From NCBI GenBank assembly GCA_965116875.1, contig OZ220733.1, positions 3,904,001 through 3,968,000 on the forward strand: 64,000 bases of DNA, in the 5' to 3' direction. The first letter of the stretch is position 1. The number at the start of each line of letters is the position of its first letter. Shown here piece by piece: positions 57,106 to 63,102 of this stretch. Under the pieces are notes generated by a model. The model saw only the letters and a program-made list of their open reading frames with translations. It ran no database searches and had not been told where the DNA came from. Both the position numbers and the translations under genes were made by a program. This DNA is from Candidatus Latescibacterota bacterium (GTDB lineage Bacteria; Latescibacterota; UBA2968; GCA-2709665).

Positions 57106-57990
57106 ATGGCCGAACTCGTATATCGTCCGGCTGCCGACGCGTATCATTTCGAAACGGAGGCGATGACCGGCGAAATCCGCGCGTCGGGAAACTATCACGG
57201 GGTGTGGACGCTTACGGACAAAGTCACCGGCAGGCAGGTGGTCCACCCGCAATTTTCGGCATTGAACCTGTTCCGGCTGTTCGCGGTGCACCAGGGTCTG
57301 GATCAACCCCGTCTGATGGACCGGACCGTCGACGTCCGGGACAACGTTATCGAAATACACTGGTCCGCCACTGAAACCCATCAGGGCGCGTTGACGGCCC
57401 GCTACGAGGTGGTCGAGCCGAATTGCATCGACCTGGCGGTGACGGTAGCGTGCGAGGGGACGTATGCGGGATATGAGCTCTTCCTGTCCAACTATTTCGA
57501 CAAGACGCTGCGGCCCCACGTCTATCTGCACGGAAGCCGTTACGGCCGGGCAAGCGAGGCTCCCGAACGGGTTGTGCCGATGGTGAATGACGTCTTTCGA
57601 GGGACCGTCATCGTGTTTCCGCGGGACCCGCACGCCGCGAGGCGCTGCGTCGACGGGCGGTGGAACCGCAGTGAGAACAATTCACCCACCGTGCAGATGT
57701 GCCCGGTCCGGTACTACGGCTATCCGTTCTCGTTCCTGACCGACGTCGGGAATCGTCTGGGCGTTGTGCTGATGTCGACGGAGGCGGACTGCTATGCGAT
57801 CAGCACGCGCTACCACGTGGACGACGAAGCCGATCGAATGACGGATTACAGCGCGTTCGATTTCTCGTTGTTCGGCGACGACCTCGTACCCGGCAGCCGT
57901 CGCACGGTCCGGATGCGGTTGGCGTTGACAGAGATCGATGAGGAAATGTCCCAGCCCCTGGCGCATTATCAGACGTTTGCGGAGGGTTGA
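57106..57990 (+). CDS. hypothetical protein (beta-rich, possibly mutarotase-like fold)
   Basis: 294-aa ORF with strong RBS AGGAG, co-oriented in the operon. Confidence 0.7.
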   Translation: MAELVYRPAADAYHFETEAMTGEIRASGNYHGVWTLTDKVTGRQVVHPQFSALNLFRLFAVHQGLDQPRLMDRTVDVRDNVIEIHWSATETHQGALTARYEVVEPNCIDLAVTVACEGTYAGYELFLSNYFDKTLRPHVYLHGSRYGRASEAPERVVPMVNDVFRGTVIVFPRDPHAARRCVDGRWNRSENNSPTVQMCPVRYYGYPFSFLTDVGNRLGVVLMSTEADCYAISTRYHVDDEADRMTDYSAFDFSLFGDDLVPGSRRTVRMRLALTEIDEEMSQPLAHYQTFAEG

Positions 57991-58076: not shown

Positions 58077-59270
58077 ATGAAACGACTGAATCAGGTTTGG
58101 GTCCGGCTCGCGTTTGCCGTCTTTGCGGCCGTGGTCGCGGCGGCATGTGGGAAGACACCGCCGACCGTGGACGACGATCTGTACGAAGAGTACCCCGGGT
58201 TGCCGTATGGGATCATGATCACCGTTGCCGGCACCGGAGATCCCGGCAGGAGCGCCACCGGAAACGGCCCCCTGGACACGGAATTGTATTTCCCCCAGGA
58301 CGTGGCCGTCGGCCCCGAGGGCCGGACGTACATTCTGGACTGGAACAACAATCGCGTTGTCGTGATCGACAACGGAACCGTCCGCCCCCTGATCGGCAAC
58401 GGCGAACCGGGCCAGGCGCTTACGGGTCCCGCGCTGGAAACAGGCGTCGATCATCCGGCACACATTTCGTTCGATCCGCAGGGGCGGTTGATCCTGTCGG
58501 CCTGGCAGAATTCGAGGATCCTTCGATACGACTTTTCCACGCGCCGGATCGGGACCATTGCCGGCACGGGCGATCGGGGGTTCAGCGGCGATGGCGGCCC
58601 CGCTCTGGACGCCTCGTTGAATCTGCCGAGTTCCACAGTCTTCGATCCGTCCGGTCGCATGTATATCTCCGATCAGGGCAACCTCCGCATTCGATTGGTC
58701 GATCTGAACGGCATCATCTCCACCGTTGCGGGCACCGGACGGGAGGGGTTTGCCGGGGACGGCGGTCCTGCGACCCTGGCCGACCTGTATGCGCCCACGG
58801 GTGACGCCGCACAGCCCGGCGGCCGGATTGCGATGGATAGCCGGGGCAACCTGTATATCGCCGATACGTTCAACAACCGGATACGCAAGGTGGATACCGC
58901 CGGCAGGATCGGCACGGTGGCCGGCGGGGGCAGTATCGGTGCAACCGCCGGTACGTATTCCGGGGACGGCGGTCCGGCAACCCAGGCCAGCCTTTCGCGG
59001 CCCAGCGACGTGGCCGTCGACGCGGAGGGGAATCTGTATATTGCCGATACCGGCAACCATTGTATCCGGAAGGTGGATACAGAGGGGACAATCACCACGC
59101 TTGCCGGCCGGTGCGGGGAGCCGGGATTCAAGGGCGACAGCGACCACCCGAGATGGGGAAAACTCAGGAGCCCCTATGGCGTCGCGCTCGACCGGGAAGA
59201 GAATCTGTACATCGCCGATACGTTCAACCATCGGATCCGCGTGGTGTACAAGCACATCGCCGTACGATGA
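58077..59270 (+). CDS. NHL-repeat (teneurin-like) beta-propeller lipoprotein
   Basis: Lipobox VAAAC; repeated GFSGDGGPA...P..VAVD..GNLYIADT.N.RIRKVD. Confidence 0.9.
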   Translation: MKRLNQVWVRLAFAVFAAVVAAACGKTPPTVDDDLYEEYPGLPYGIMITVAGTGDPGRSATGNGPLDTELYFPQDVAVGPEGRTYILDWNNNRVVVIDNGTVRPLIGNGEPGQALTGPALETGVDHPAHISFDPQGRLILSAWQNSRILRYDFSTRRIGTIAGTGDRGFSGDGGPALDASLNLPSSTVFDPSGRMYISDQGNLRIRLVDLNGIISTVAGTGREGFAGDGGPATLADLYAPTGDAAQPGGRIAMDSRGNLYIADTFNNRIRKVDTAGRIGTVAGGGSIGATAGTYSGDGGPATQASLSRPSDVAVDAEGNLYIADTGNHCIRKVDTEGTITTLAGRCGEPGFKGDSDHPRWGKLRSPYGVALDREENLYIADTFNHRIRVVYKHIAVR

Positions 59271-59336: not shown

Positions 59337-59840
59337 ATGGGCGGAATGAGACGGCTTGGATTTGCAGGCATCCTGCTGGCTGCGAGTCTGTTCTGTTGTT
59401 TTCCGGATATCGCGGCCGCCGGGGATAAGGAACCCGTTCCCCTGCCACGCGTGCAGGTTGTCACGCTGGAAGGAGACACGCTGAATCTTGCCGATGTGTG
59501 CGAAGACAAGCCATCCTTCGTCTATCTTTGGGCAACCTGGTGCAAGACGTGCAAGAAGGACTTGAAGAATGTCTTCAAGTTGAGGGATAAATTCGGCGAC
59601 CGGATCCAGGTTTTCGGCATTGCGTGGAAGAACAGCGCGGAGGAGATTCAGACCTTCTTCGCGGACAGGAAGCAGACGCTGCACAGCTACATCGATTCGG
59701 ATGGCCGGGTATTCGAAGCCTTCGAGACCCGGTTGACGCCCACGGTTGTGATCGTCAATGCCCGCGGGGAGGTCCTTTTTTCGGGTTACGGCTCCTTTCG
59801 GAAGTACAGAAAGATCCTGGAAAAGGCATTGAAAGGGTAG
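59337..59840 (+). CDS. TlpA-family exported thioredoxin
   Basis: Signal peptide, WATWCKTC, cis-Pro motif LTPT; alternative start 59346. Confidence 0.88.
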   Translation: MGGMRRLGFAGILLAASLFCCFPDIAAAGDKEPVPLPRVQVVTLEGDTLNLADVCEDKPSFVYLWATWCKTCKKDLKNVFKLRDKFGDRIQVFGIAWKNSAEEIQTFFADRKQTLHSYIDSDGRVFEAFETRLTPTVVIVNARGEVLFSGYGSFRKYRKILEKALKG

Positions 59841-59883
59841 CGGTCGACTGAACGAAAACCACAATGCTCGAGGAGTGTGGAAG

Positions 59884-60858
59884 ATGAAACGAGTTTTCAA
59901 GGTTCTCCCGTTGATTCTGATCAGCCACCTGTTTTACGGTTACGAACCTGCCCTGGCGCAGCCTGGCGTAAGCTGACGTCGTCCCGTACTCCCGGGCGGG
60001 AGAATGCTTCAGGGCAGTCTGATCACGAAGGACCTTTTCGTCGTGAGCGCGAACTACGAGTACGAGTACCTGGGCGATGCGATGTACGGTACCGGGCCGA
60101 TCCCCAACATCAACCAGGAAGTGACCAGCATGTCAACGGTGTCCGTATTCGCCAGTTACGGGGTCACGGAATGGTTCGGCGCCGCCGTCGTGCTTCCGTT
60201 TCGTTCCATTACCAACGACAAGATTCTGCTACCCGGTCAGTACGACAACCAGTATCAGGGCGGAAAGTACGTCCGGCACGCCGCCGGTCTGGGCGACGTC
60301 GTTCTGATGTTGAATTTTGCGCCGCCACTGCCCGACGCACTGCCCGGATTGCTCTTTTCGGCAGGTGTCAAGTTGGCCAACGGTTCGACTCACGCGGTCG
60401 ATGAGTACGGCAGCCGGTTCGCCGACCTGTTGCAGGTGGGTTCCGGAAGCATGGACCCCATTTTCTCCGTCAGTCTGTCCCGCGCGTTCGACAGCCTGTT
60501 TTTCTCCGGTATGCTCTTCACACGCATTATTTCCCGCGAGAACGTGTACGGATACAAATACGGAAATGAGTTTCAGGGCATCTTTTCCATGGATTACATG
60601 CACGGGGAGAAGATAATTGCCGGTCTCAGCCTGAACCACGTCTACACGGACCGCGATTATTTCCAATATGGAAAGATTGCCCGAAAACGTGGCGGTACGT
60701 GGCTGTATCTCGCGCCGAAGCTGGGTGTACGGGCAACGGAGAATCTGAGCCTGGAGGCCAGGCTGCCGCTTCCCGTGTATCAGAACGTGAACGAAAGCCA
60801 GCTGACCTCCGACTACCAGCTCCACGTGGGCGCCACCTATCACTTTTTCGCCCGTTAG
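59884..60858 (+). CDS. outer-membrane beta-barrel (MetA-pathway/phenol-degradation-like transporter) with in-frame UGA at codon 31, candidate selenoprotein
   Basis: ATG 59884 after GAGGAG gives MKRVFKVLPLILISHLFYGYEPALA-QPGVS-[TGA 59974-59976]-RRPVLPGGR, in frame with the 60004-60858 ORF (GLGD, LQVGSGS.D, Y.YGNE, LPVYQNVN..QL). Confidence 0.75.
59985..60006 (+). promoter_or_regulatory. candidate bacterial SECIS hairpin
   Basis: Stem CTCCC/GGGAG, extended by CGT/ATG pairs, with apical loop GGGC whose first G is 18 nt after the UGA. Confidence 0.5.
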
Positions 60859-60942
60859 CAGTCCGTTGATAAAGTCGCTCTGCAGGCCTGCGAGTGAAGT
60901 CTTCGCAGGCAGGCAGCCCGGATGGACTTTTTCAACGGGCTG
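60859..60942 (-). mobile_element. MITE family 2, short (84 bp) variant with TTAG target duplication
   Basis: TTAG-CAGTCCGTTGATAAAGTC...GACTTTTTCAACGGGCTG-TTAG; the left TAG is the stop codon of the barrel gene. Confidence 0.8.
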
Positions 60943-60971
60943 TTAGCGGCTGTACAGCGTGGAAACGTCAC

Positions 60972-61718
60972 ATGCGGGAGGCCGGGTTGGCGCCGAATGA
61001 AACCGAAAAGATGTGGGCCGAACTGGCGCCGTACTATGACGTATTGTATCAGTGGAAGGACTATCGGACCGAGTCGGAGCGGGTTCATCAATTGATCCAG
61101 GCGCATCGAATGACGTCCGGCAATGCCCTGCTGGACGTCGCGTGCGGGACCGGGGGGCATGCCCGGTTTCTGCGGGACCACTACGATGTAACCGGTGTCG
61201 ATCTGAATCGCGAAATGTTGAAGGAGGCCCGCAGAAAAATACCCGGTGTCAGATTTCTGTCCCGGGACATGACGTCCTTCGATCTCAATCGTCGCTTTGA
61301 CGCGGTCATCTGTCTGTTCAGTTCAATTGCCTACGTAAGGACGTACCGGAACCTGAAACGGACGATCGCCTGTTTTGCGAGACATCTGAAACCCGGCGGC
61401 ATTCTGATTATCGAGCCTTTTTTCACGAAAGAGACGTTCGTTGCAGGATCGATCCACGGAGGCACGCTTGAAGCCGAAGGTGTAAAGATCTCCAGACACA
61501 ACGTGAGTCGACGCCGCGGAAACCTGGCCGTCCTCGATTTTCATTTTCTCCTTTCAACGAAGAAAGGCACACGGTACTTTCGCGACACCCACGAGATGGC
61601 CCTGTTCGACAGGGAGAGATTTCTCGAGATTATGGCGCTTGCAGGTCTGGCGCCGAGGTACGACGAAAGCGGTCTGATGCCGGGTCGGGGACTCTACGTC
61701 ACGCAGAAGGCCGTTTGA
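60972..61718 (+). CDS. class I SAM-dependent methyltransferase
   Basis: YYD..Y..KDY, LLDVACGTG, GVDL...ML, FDAVICLFSSI, HLKPGG; start uncertain. Confidence 0.88.
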   Translation: MREAGLAPNETEKMWAELAPYYDVLYQWKDYRTESERVHQLIQAHRMTSGNALLDVACGTGGHARFLRDHYDVTGVDLNREMLKEARRKIPGVRFLSRDMTSFDLNRRFDAVICLFSSIAYVRTYRNLKRTIACFARHLKPGGILIIEPFFTKETFVAGSIHGGTLEAEGVKISRHNVSRRRGNLAVLDFHFLLSTKKGTRYFRDTHEMALFDRERFLEIMALAGLAPRYDESGLMPGRGLYVTQKAV

Positions 61719-61737: not shown

Positions 61738-63102
61738 ATGGAACCACGTTCGGACAATGGCAATGCGGGGACCGATCGGAATCCGCAGGTTCTGGGCAAG
61801 AATTTCATGTTTCCGCCTCACGTGATCGACGATATACACATCAAGGCGAATCTGGGCCGGTACCGCATGCGCGGTATGGCGCTTTTCAAGAAGATCCCAT
61901 CGTGGGACGACCTGACGTTTCTGCCGGGCACGCTTACCCGGTTCGTTATCGAGGGATACCGTGAAAAATGCGAAACGAGGACGGTGCTCGGGCCCATGGC
62001 GGAACGGCCCCTGGCGCTGGATATTCCCATATACATAACGGGAATGAGCTTTGGGGCGTTGTCCTACGAGGCGAAGGTGGCTCTGGCCAGAGGGGCCACG
62101 ATGGCGGGCACGGCGACCTGTTCAGGAGAGGGTGGAATGCTGCCCGACGAGCGGCGGTATTCGGAGAAGTGGCTGTACCAGTGCATTCAGTCCCGTTACG
62201 GATTCAATCCGCACCACATGCGACTGGCCGACGGTGTCGAGTTCTTCATCGGTCAGGGATGCAAGGTGGGCCTCGGCGGGCACCTGATGGGCCAGAAGGT
62301 GACCGACCAGGTTGCCGAAATGCGTTCATTGCCGGCGGGGATCGATCAGCGTTCGCCGGCCAGGCACCCGGACTGGCTGGGCCCCGACGATCTGGCCCTG
62401 AAGATCGAGGAGATCCGCGAAGCGACCAACTGGCAGATACCCATCCAGTTGAAGCTCGGCGCGGCGCGGGTCTATGACGATGTGAGGATGGCGGCCAAGA
62501 CCGGCCCCGACAGCATCTATATGGACGGGATGGAAGGCTCGACGGGGGCGGGACCCCACCTGGCCACCGAGGAGACGGGCGTGCCGGGGATCGCGGCCAT
62601 CAGGCAGGCCAGAAAGGCGCTGGACGACGTGGGAAAGACCGGGGAGATTACGCTGGTCTATGCGGGAGGGATACGCAACGGGGCCGACGTTGCCAAAGCG
62701 CTCGCGCTTGGCGCCGACGCGGTAGCCATCGGCACCGCGGCGATGGTGGCGCTCAACTGCAACAAGGATATCCCGGAGGCCGATTACGAGGGAACGGTCG
62801 GCGTTCCCGCGGGTACCTGCTACCATTGCCATACCGGGCTGTGTCCCGTGGGCGTGGCCACCCAGGATCCTGTGCTTCGCAGCCGACTGGACCCGGATGA
62901 GGCGGCCGAACGGGTATACAATTTCCTTCATACCCTTGCCATCGAGTGCCAGATGTTCGCCAGGGCCTGCGGCAAAACCGACGTCCACTCCCTGGAGCCG
63001 GAGGACCTTGCCGCGCTGACCATGGAAGCGTCCGCCATGGCGGAGGTTCCGCTTGCGGGCACCCGCCATACCGTGGGCCATCCGGAGATGAACAGGTTCT
63101 GA
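61738..63102 (+). CDS. glxD: FMN-binding glutamate synthase family protein, GlxD/MgsC (N-methylglutamate synthase subunit)-like
   Basis: GMSFGALS, GEGGM, GQGCKVGLGG, LPAGIDQRSPARHPDWLGPDDL, CYHCHTGLCPVGVATQD, ACGKTDVHSLEPEDL.ALT.EA. Confidence 0.82.
   Translation: MEPRSDNGNAGTDRNPQVLGKNFMFPPHVIDDIHIKANLGRYRMRGMALFKKIPSWDDLTFLPGTLTRFVIEGYREKCETRTVLGPMAERPLALDIPIYITGMSFGALSYEAKVALARGATMAGTATCSGEGGMLPDERRYSEKWLYQCIQSRYGFNPHHMRLADGVEFFIGQGCKVGLGGHLMGQKVTDQVAEMRSLPAGIDQRSPARHPDWLGPDDLALKIEEIREATNWQIPIQLKLGAARVYDDVRMAAKTGPDSIYMDGMEGSTGAGPHLATEETGVPGIAAIRQARKALDDVGKTGEITLVYAGGIRNGADVAKALALGADAVAIGTAAMVALNCNKDIPEADYEGTVGVPAGTCYHCHTGLCPVGVATQDPVLRSRLDPDEAAERVYNFLHTLAIECQMFARACGKTDVHSLEPEDLAALTMEASAMAEVPLAGTRHTVGHPEMNRF

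Follow-up and report, generated by a model that had tools for sequence, protein, structure and literature searches.

A probable outer-membrane beta-barrel selenoprotein with an unpaired selenocysteine close to its mature N-terminus in Latescibacterota

The gene and its reading frame

The present analysis concerns a gene for a predicted outer-membrane beta-barrel protein, interrupted by a single in-frame TGA, in a Candidatus Latescibacterota bacterium (GenBank assembly GCA_965116875.1). It lies near the end of a stretch of 64,000 nucleotides (nt) of contig OZ220733.1 (positions 3,904,001 to 3,968,000, forward strand); this whole stretch is referred to as the window, and plain coordinates are those of the window. 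Under the bacterial code (table 11), an open reading frame (ORF) of 284 codons starts at ATG 60004, and its product, beginning MLQGSLITKDL, lacks a hydrophobic leader, as the original prediction from the DNA letters had stated. Reading of 59870-60858 also bears out the arrangement proposed there, namely a ribosome-binding site and an upstream ATG (59884) in frame with ATG 60004, a leader ending in PALA and one intervening TGA. The 30 sense codons between ATG 59884 and the TGA read MKRVFKVLPLILISHLFYGYEPALAQPGVS, and after the TGA the frame continues as RRPVLPGGR, so that ATG 60004 becomes Met41 of the longer product. With the TGA read as selenocysteine (Sec, U in motifs), the features of the gene, including a candidate selenocysteine insertion sequence (SECIS), are as follows.

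59884-60858, + strand: whole candidate selenoprotein gene, 324 codons including Sec31, with stop codon TAG at 60856-60858
59870-59875, + strand: Shine-Dalgarno-like GAGGAG, ending 8 nt ahead of ATG 59884
59884-59958, + strand: putative signal peptide M1-A25 with the PALA end, cleavage predicted before Q26
59974-59976, + strand: proposed Sec codon UGA, number 31 of the gene and sixth of the predicted mature protein
59985-60006, + strand: candidate SECIS hairpin, core stem 59989-59993 / 59998-60002, loop 59994-59997
60004-60858, + strand: barrel body as called under table 11, 284 residues without leader, the shortened form that pipelines report

A similar layout is seen in homologues, in which a variable hydrophobic leader with an A-x-A end also precedes the Q. 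In each of 41 homologous loci, assembled as described below, an ATG lies 24-32 codons 5' of the TGA, with leader and barrel in one frame in 41/41, and a purine-rich AGGA/GAGG motif stands ahead of the equivalent ATG in most of them. It had been anticipated that standard pipelines would shorten the protein, and 34 of 36 close database homologues (P0002-P0037) are indeed called leaderless, at 236-289 residues, the other two being full-length forms with Ser. A scan for promoters and terminators returned scores at or below shuffled expectation and was uninformative.

Conservation of the in-frame TGA

The 324-residue read-through product (P0001) was run against 168 genomes of the window's phylum, Latescibacterota, and matches were found in 35 of them, each strong match having exactly one internal TGA; the match in the own genome spans residues 1-324, again with one TGA. 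The 34 phylum loci that were compared consist of 15 orthologues and 15 paralogues, one pair in each of 15 genomes that belong to the window's genus (the own genome among them), plus three from a second genus and one from another family at 31% identity. Orthologue and paralogue within the genus are 52-54% identical. In all 34 the TGA occupies the same aligned place, between the variable leader and RRPVLPGG. A wider scan, covering one genome per species across all prokaryotes, contributed seven extra loci from KSB1, Calditrichaceae, Fidelibacterota, Neomarinimicrobiota (Marinimicrobia) and two unclassified metagenome-assembled genomes (MAGs), where the motif reads AQGG(V/I)S-U-RRPxLPGG. Taken together, the aligned column is TGA in 41/41 homologous loci (37 distinct over 63 nt) and in 38/38 distinct full-length genes, and the same TGA occurs in six further loci (five metagenome loci and one genome), some of which possibly represent the same organisms.

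Both flanks of the Sec codon are conserved, as AQ(P/G)GVS-U-RRPxLPGG, whereas the upstream leader varies yet stays open and hydrophobic. The stretch between the UGA and Met41 is the best-conserved part of the protein. Met41 itself is not conserved, no conserved start codon was found 3' of the TGA across the loci, and five of them (L083, L084, L094, L095 and L100) have no Met in the first 15-20 residues beyond the TGA. A strain-specific nonsense mutation, which the original prediction had named as a possible refutation, is at odds with this conservation. As for confirmation in sequencing data, which it had also called for, a stretch of 1522 bases, TGA included, is identical in two public run assemblies from different studies, one of which is possibly the source sample. 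Contigs from two other runs, X3 (DNA) and X11 (an RNA library), hold parts of a close relative only and do not bridge the UGA; the RNA-library contig covers 60025-60233 of a 98% relative and stops short of the UGA.

A second Sec barrel, 52% identical and with its own TGA and hairpin, was observed in the same genome (G000:C1:4532170-4533108, - strand; L183:7171-8109). In its surroundings a lactonase/SGL-type beta-propeller gene (L183:5952-7172) overlaps the barrel end, and nearby genes encode a small multihaem cytochrome c and a class II ribonucleotide reductase. It was also noticed that contigs of the paralogue align to 59965-60002 (38 nt, comprising the Gly-Val-Ser end, the TGA, the spacer and the hairpin) with four differences, their flanks being unmatched.

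A covarying hairpin downstream of the UGA

The hairpin with a G-first apical loop that had been pointed out past the UGA is present: CUCCC (59989-59993) pairs with GGGAG (59998-60002) around the loop GGGC (59994-59997), and a weaker lower extension is formed by 59985-59987 and 60004-60006. The first G of the loop is the 18th base past the UGA, that is, 17 bases intervene. The bacterial SECIS consensus, as given in a 2026 review (PMC13188914), calls for a loop of 3-9 nt, an upper stem of 4-16 base pairs (bp), a G among the first two loop bases, a UGA-to-loop distance of 16-37 nt and a minimum free energy (MFE) of at most -7.5 kcal/mol. The window's element agrees with this consensus, having a 4-nt loop, a core stem of 5 bp (homologues mostly have 6 bp, and stems range over 5-9 bp) and a spacing of 17 nt, and its folding energy is -13.4 kcal/mol over a 45-nt stretch. 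The conserved hairpin can be drawn in the same register at 39 of the 41 loci, and loops across homologues read GGGC, GGGU, AGGU, UGGA and GGUC.

Covariation was scored on the 41 loci, reduced to 34 distinct rows, for a six-pair core against 500 shuffles. Pairing holds for 92.6% of the cells of this core; the covariation score of 0.217, compared with 0.104 +/- 0.014 for shuffled alignments, is reached by 0/500 of them and lies above every slid control. The key pair is formed between the third bases of a Leu codon and of the second Gly codon, two positions that are free to vary synonymously, and in the 34 distinct rows it is CG in 23, UA in eight, UG in two and AU in one, with none unpaired. The third bases of two Arg codons in the spacer vary freely. 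On the aligned sequences, the synonymous constraint past the UGA is confined to the stem positions. A comparable arrangement is found in selD of the same genome, where 17 nt after the Sec codon there is a 7-bp hairpin with the loop GGUC, and the barrel copy of Marinimicrobia has that very loop. The SECIS check that had been suggested thus gives a hairpin that fits published bacterial limits, is conserved, covaries and resembles the selD SECIS.

An alternative hairpin, pairing positions 9-14 with 23-28 past the UGA, was considered and rejected, covariation being absent (0.102 vs 0.107).

Selenocysteine machinery

The presence of selA, selB, selC and selD had been proposed as a check, and all four were found in the own genome, each above its curated cut-off: selB at 373 bits, selA at 549 bits, the tRNA-Sec gene (selC) at 73 bits and selD at 366 bits. 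The tRNA-Sec gene adjoins selA and selB. The selA and selB matches are free of internal stops, and selD itself (G000:C1:1070717-1071640, + strand; locus L012) has one in-frame TGA, in TCG-U-AAKVSP. Beyond this genome, selB was detected in 17 of the 18 genomes of the phylum that have a TGA barrel, the exception being a genome that is 80% complete, and in 5/5 of the TGA-barrel genomes tested from other phyla. A selB gene is required for such decoding, and its presence, as found here, does not discriminate. With the conserved TGA, the covarying hairpin and the sel genes, the proposal that the UGA is decoded as Sec is supported.

The barrel protein and its family

An AlphaFold2 (AF2) model built on a 26-row alignment has a mean predicted local distance difference test (pLDDT) score of 83.7, a predicted template modelling (pTM) score of 0.79 and about 12 long strands. 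The best Foldseek match in the Protein Data Bank (PDB) is FapF (5o65; E 4e-12, TMq 0.63), the barrel through which Pseudomonas secretes amyloid, and the COG4313 channel Pput2725 (4rl8) is matched at E 3e-11 to 2e-10 with TM values of 0.63-0.75 (TMt 0.74-0.75). No Pfam family, PF13557 included, was found for P0001 or for the 284-residue ORF, no NCBIfam family for P0001 at E up to 1, and a profile search of PDB sequences gave no match for the protein. The paralogue group does exceed the PF13557 cut-off of 22 bits, P0020 scoring 28.6 bits; P0039 scores 34.

A HMMER scan of 1.84 billion representatives yielded 614 relatives at E <= 1e-3 and only six at 1e-30, and by these sequence comparisons the Sec subfamily is evidently a compact group inside a large superfamily. 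The N-termini of the wider relatives carry, as a rule, Cys motifs right past the leader (Q-x-CC-S-G-G, A-S-C-G-S-x-x-C, C-A-S-C-G-C), in line with the earlier statement that barrels of this type often have an early Cys, and in distant homologues these motifs align at or beside the Sec position. The mature part is without any Cys in 37 of 38 distinct genes, and Sec is the only Cys-like residue of the window's protein. In a quick maximum-likelihood tree of 60 rows, hand-picked from the close homologues, the HMMER relatives and the loci compared above and rooted at the midpoint only, the superfamily splits into a Cys-tipped clade (24 rows, support 99) and a clade of 36 rows (support 99) that includes all Sec forms, the truncated calls, fusions with thioredoxin, two Ser forms and four Cys-less forms. 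The Ser forms fall inside a clade of Sec forms (14 rows, support 95).

Neighbouring genes and fusions

Upstream of the barrel, on the same strand, the window encodes two neighbours, the order being propeller, thioredoxin, barrel.

58077-59270, + strand: NHL-repeat beta-propeller lipoprotein, with start ATG 58077 and a lipobox Cys at residue 24 both predicted
59337-59840, + strand: exported TlpA/ResA/StoA-like thioredoxin with WCKTC, the upstream neighbour of the barrel

The thioredoxin has a leader along with its WCKTC motif and scores above the cut-offs of PF00578, PF08534 and PF13905; its PDB relatives are YkuV, StoA, ResA and TlpA (E 1e-9 to 2e-6), and the NCBIfam models for StoA, ResA and TlpA are matched below their cut-offs. 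A beta-propeller gene of NHL, SGL or lactonase type adjoins the barrel at 39/41 loci and a thioredoxin gene at 22/41, the latter at all orthologue-type loci and in KSB1, Calditrichaceae, Fidelibacterota and one unclassified MAG. At loci from beyond the window's family, the thioredoxin gene comes first, then the barrel and then the propeller. A protein with FG-GAP/VCBS and ASPIC-UnbV domains flanks the cassette in 6/6 of the loci tested from outside Latescibacterota, and five of the six have a C-terminal domain for type-IX secretion, the copy at L097 being cut by the locus end. The positions of these genes are given on the following line; no such protein is found in the window.

FG-GAP/ASPIC genes: L083:325-2157; L084:376-2346; L094:700-2652 (-); L095:1170-2912 (-); L097:5403-6941; L100:629-2425 (-)

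Among relatives of 372-417 residues, a C-terminal PF00085 thioredoxin domain is fused to the barrel in 9/9 of those tested, with CxxC in eight. Of all the observations, this gene fusion argues most strongly for barrel and thioredoxin working together. In one fusion group all 13 proteins are annotated as leaderless, and the barrel-thioredoxin fusions may hide an upstream TGA too. Their DNA was not found in the 168 genomes of the window's phylum or in 167 of the KSB1 centre's phylum. The fusions observed are P0046, P0048, P0049, P0051, P0055, P0069, P0076, P0089, P0111 and P0118, all called leaderless.

Other genes close by were also recorded. A 294-codon ORF at 57106-57990 (+ strand) has no Pfam match; it shares 4 nt with the beginning of the longest NHL ORF, which starts at a TTG, and may be in the same operon as the NHL gene. 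Downstream on the same strand are an S-adenosylmethionine-dependent methyltransferase (60894-61718, + strand) and a flavin mononucleotide (FMN) protein with a glutamate-synthase domain (61738-63102, + strand); the place of these two genes beside the barrel is conserved in the window's genus only (L098, L103). No metal-related genes flank the Sec barrel family.

Weighing the evidence

The explanation that best covers the whole of these observations is that 59884-60858 is one gene, encoding an outer-membrane beta-barrel selenoprotein, and we hold it to be highly probable. That UGA codon 31 is a genuine Sec codon seems, from the comparison of sequences, more secure still and very nearly settled. 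A functional link between barrel and thioredoxin is a more evenly balanced proposition, and any particular substrate named for the Sec site would be doubtful at best.

Several observations weigh against this explanation and deserve to be set out together. The gene for SelB is common throughout the phylum (128/168 genomes), and its co-occurrence with the barrel discriminates little. The folding energy of the hairpin is not unusual for a G+C-rich sequence (z = 0.30, with 122/200 shuffles folding at least as well), and plain MFE folding of the 37 nt past the UGA recovers the conserved hairpin in only 15/41 loci; it favours competing G+C-rich folds in most Latescibacterota copies and gives a competing fold for the window's own 37 nt. 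In L041 and L100 the hairpin can be formed in a shifted register only, an Rfam scan of 59850-60150 gave no match at E up to 10, and third-position conservation past the TGA is not generally raised (1.03 vs 1.17 +/- 0.44 bits). Thioredoxin is absent beside the 15 paralogues, L095 and L097. Confidence in the model is low at residues 20-50 (pLDDT 49-65), making the position of the Sec tail uncertain. Folding energy was rejected as support for the hairpin on account of the z value and the competing folds, and since the energy is ordinary, support for the hairpin rests on the comparison between loci.

Residues other than Sec at the critical position point in the same unfavourable direction. It had been suggested that homologues be examined for Cys or UGA at codon 31; UGA is found there in 41/41 loci, but the only two close full-length homologues without the TGA (P0014 and P0023) have Ser. 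In remoter members of the clade, Glu, Ala or Pro stands near this position, and one database fragment of 172 residues (P0054, GVS-W-RRPILPGG, GVSWRRPILPGG) has Trp, possibly a TGA that the source's gene caller translated with a different genetic code. To judge from these sequences, neither Sec nor Cys is likely to be indispensable to every barrel of the clade. Nevertheless the Ser homologues do not refute Sec, since the tree places them among the Sec forms, and this points to a secondary loss of Sec.

One alternative takes the UGA for a selenium-dependent switch, read as Sec without any chemical role, so that synthesis of the barrel is tied to selenium supply and SelB and the RRPxLPGG segment does the work. 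The nested Ser forms do retain an RRPxLxGG tail, as the remoter Glu, Ala and Pro relatives retain RRP or KRP. Yet both paralogues, and several phyla, retain Sec at exactly one position flanked by conserved residues, the sister clade has Cys motifs at the equivalent tip, and redox partners are co-encoded or fused, whereas a mere switch needs no thioredoxin; we consider such a switch unlikely. The Trp of P0054 would suit a read-through of another kind, in which a near-cognate tRNA for Trp, Cys, Arg or Gly, or a code with TGA as a sense codon, takes the place of SelB and Sec-tRNA. Against this, genes of the window and the genome are open under table 11 and many of their frames end in TGA, the selA and selB matches have no internal stops, the UGA is followed by a SECIS-type hairpin whose spacing and loop type are like those of selD, and all but one of the 23 genomes tested have the Sec machinery, which leaves this explanation very improbable.

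Two explanations do without any decoding of the UGA. It could be a true stop, ending a leader peptide of 30 residues, with the barrel made separately from ATG 60004; table 11 gives this reading, and 34 of the 36 close homologues are called in this way. A leaderless barrel has no route to the outer membrane, however, and the stretch from the UGA to Met41 is the best conserved of the protein, while Met41 is not conserved, several loci have no nearby start codon, and leader and barrel share one frame at 41/41 loci; this we regard as hardly credible. A nonsense mutation, pseudogene or sequencing error has nothing in its favour except the bare presence of an in-frame stop. All 41 loci, which come from independent assemblies and span several phyla, have the TGA; two run assemblies made in different studies do not differ there, and elsewhere the gene is intact and conserved, making this the least plausible of all the explanations. 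Because TGA and frame are conserved and the run assemblies agree, an error, a strain-specific nonsense mutation and a separate leaderless ORF can be set aside for practical purposes.

Proposed mechanism

The established paradigm for Sec insertion by SelB and a hairpin is fdhF of Escherichia coli. By this model, SelB with Sec-tRNA(Sec) would bind the hairpin, whose loop lies 17 nt past the UGA, while the ribosome stands on the UGA, and Sec would be inserted. The Sec translocon would then export the protein and signal peptidase would cut after PALA, before Gln26. The mature protein, starting QPGVS-U-RRPVLPGG, is expected to fold into a barrel of about 12 strands of the type of FapF and the COG4313 channels, with a short N-terminal tail on the periplasmic side or in the lumen.

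As the mature protein has no Cys-like residue besides Sec, an oxidised or liganded Sec would have to be resolved by another molecule, and the likeliest partner appears to be the co-encoded exported thioredoxin of TlpA/ResA type with its CxxC. In a barrel with an even number of strands both ends are periplasmic, and therefore a fused or adjacent thioredoxin would sit next to the Sec tail. The neighbour found most regularly is the propeller. Barrel, propeller and thioredoxin may form an envelope module in which the thioredoxin keeps the selenol of the tail reduced, the selenol being a redox-active site, or a site for a thiophilic ligand, at the channel mouth. The Sec site could either cycle through a mixed selenenyl-sulfide with the thioredoxin or stay reduced in order to bind something thiophilic. 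Our best guess for the role of Sec is a periplasmic redox or ligand site serviced by thioredoxin. That the protein is redox- or metal-reactive, as the original prediction had it, is still a matter of inference.

Comparison with known systems

The predicted fold is like that of the COG4313 / PF13557 (Phenol_MetA_deg) channels, such as Pput2725 of Pseudomonas putida F1 (4rl8), and both are exported barrels of about 300 residues. Unlike these channels, the window's protein has no Pfam match and no match among PDB sequences, and it has Sec on an N-terminal tail. For the COG4313 channels, uptake of hydrophobic compounds has been suggested, and the locus in the window contains no pointer to such a role. 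FapF, although the best structural match, is only 14-15% identical; it has an N-terminal plug helix and no Sec, and no fap genes are found near the window's barrel. Outer-membrane barrels with Sec do exist in the GSU2204 / MtrB-PioB barrel (NF041027) and the FCYXU TonB-dependent receptor (NF049945), however, these two families are unrelated to the present one, being larger barrels with other motifs (CXXCH and FCYXU).

A further comparison is with the Cys-tipped sister clade, whose members are homologous barrels (24-33% identity) with a thiol motif where the window's family has Sec. They differ in having two or three Cys in place of one Sec and in lacking thioredoxin and propeller neighbours. 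A DUF2946 gene lies upstream of the barrel in 3/3 of the CASCGC-type loci scanned (L130:2256-2630, L163:2260-2631 and L177:2134-2520), and DUF2946 is reportedly tied to copper control (PMC9426467). By this analogy, a metal-related lead would hold only for the sister clade. Small ORFs of DUF2946-like size, with no Pfam match, were also seen upstream of barrels tipped with ASCGSxxC (L110, L125).

The neighbouring thioredoxin resembles the TlpA, ResA and StoA reductases in its leader and WCxxC. TlpA reportedly maintains ScoI and CoxB with their metal-binding cysteines in the reduced form; we know of no member of this group that services a selenol on an outer-membrane barrel.

Novelty and significance

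Table 1 of the 2026 review lists 119 selenoprotein families, two of them in the outer membrane, the MtrB/PioB-type barrel and the FCYXU TonB-dependent receptor, and in that table no barrel like PF13557/COG4313 appears (PMC13188914). A passage of another account gives only the MtrB/PioB barrel among outer-membrane selenoproteins (PMC9312934). A literature search found no description of the present family, although supplements of papers on predictors or MAG surveys may name it, and no paper pairing 'COG4313' with 'selenocysteine'. These comparisons support a further bacterial selenoprotein family that is unusual both in its location and in its unpaired Sec.

Members of the family occur in little-studied lineages, namely Latescibacterota, KSB1, Fidelibacterota and Marinimicrobia. 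Runs that contain parts of the window's stretch (shares of 0.05-0.29) are labelled as sponge and coral-reef metagenomes, those of X3 and X11 holding pieces of a close relative only, and a sponge or coral-reef habitat is no more than a possibility.

In database records 34 of the 36 close homologues appear as leaderless, shortened 'hypothetical' or 'transporter' entries, which hide both the export signal of the family and its only reactive residue. With this family, an outer-membrane channel whose single Sec is unpaired would join a list made up mostly of thioredoxin-fold enzymes with UxxC or CxxU. Propeller, thioredoxin and barrel, together with the fusions, offer a concrete three-part module that is open to testing. 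It is conceivable, though we put it forward tentatively, that these three proteins make up a hitherto unrecognised envelope redox machine, with the lone selenol on a flexible channel tip as its working site; it might take the form of a membrane-anchored selenoperoxidase or reductase recycled by thioredoxin, or of a selenol gate or ligand site for thiophilic substrates. If this is true, such a machine and the Cys-tipped sister clade would together constitute a large class of outer-membrane channels, found across many phyla, that could be called 'chalcogen-tipped'.

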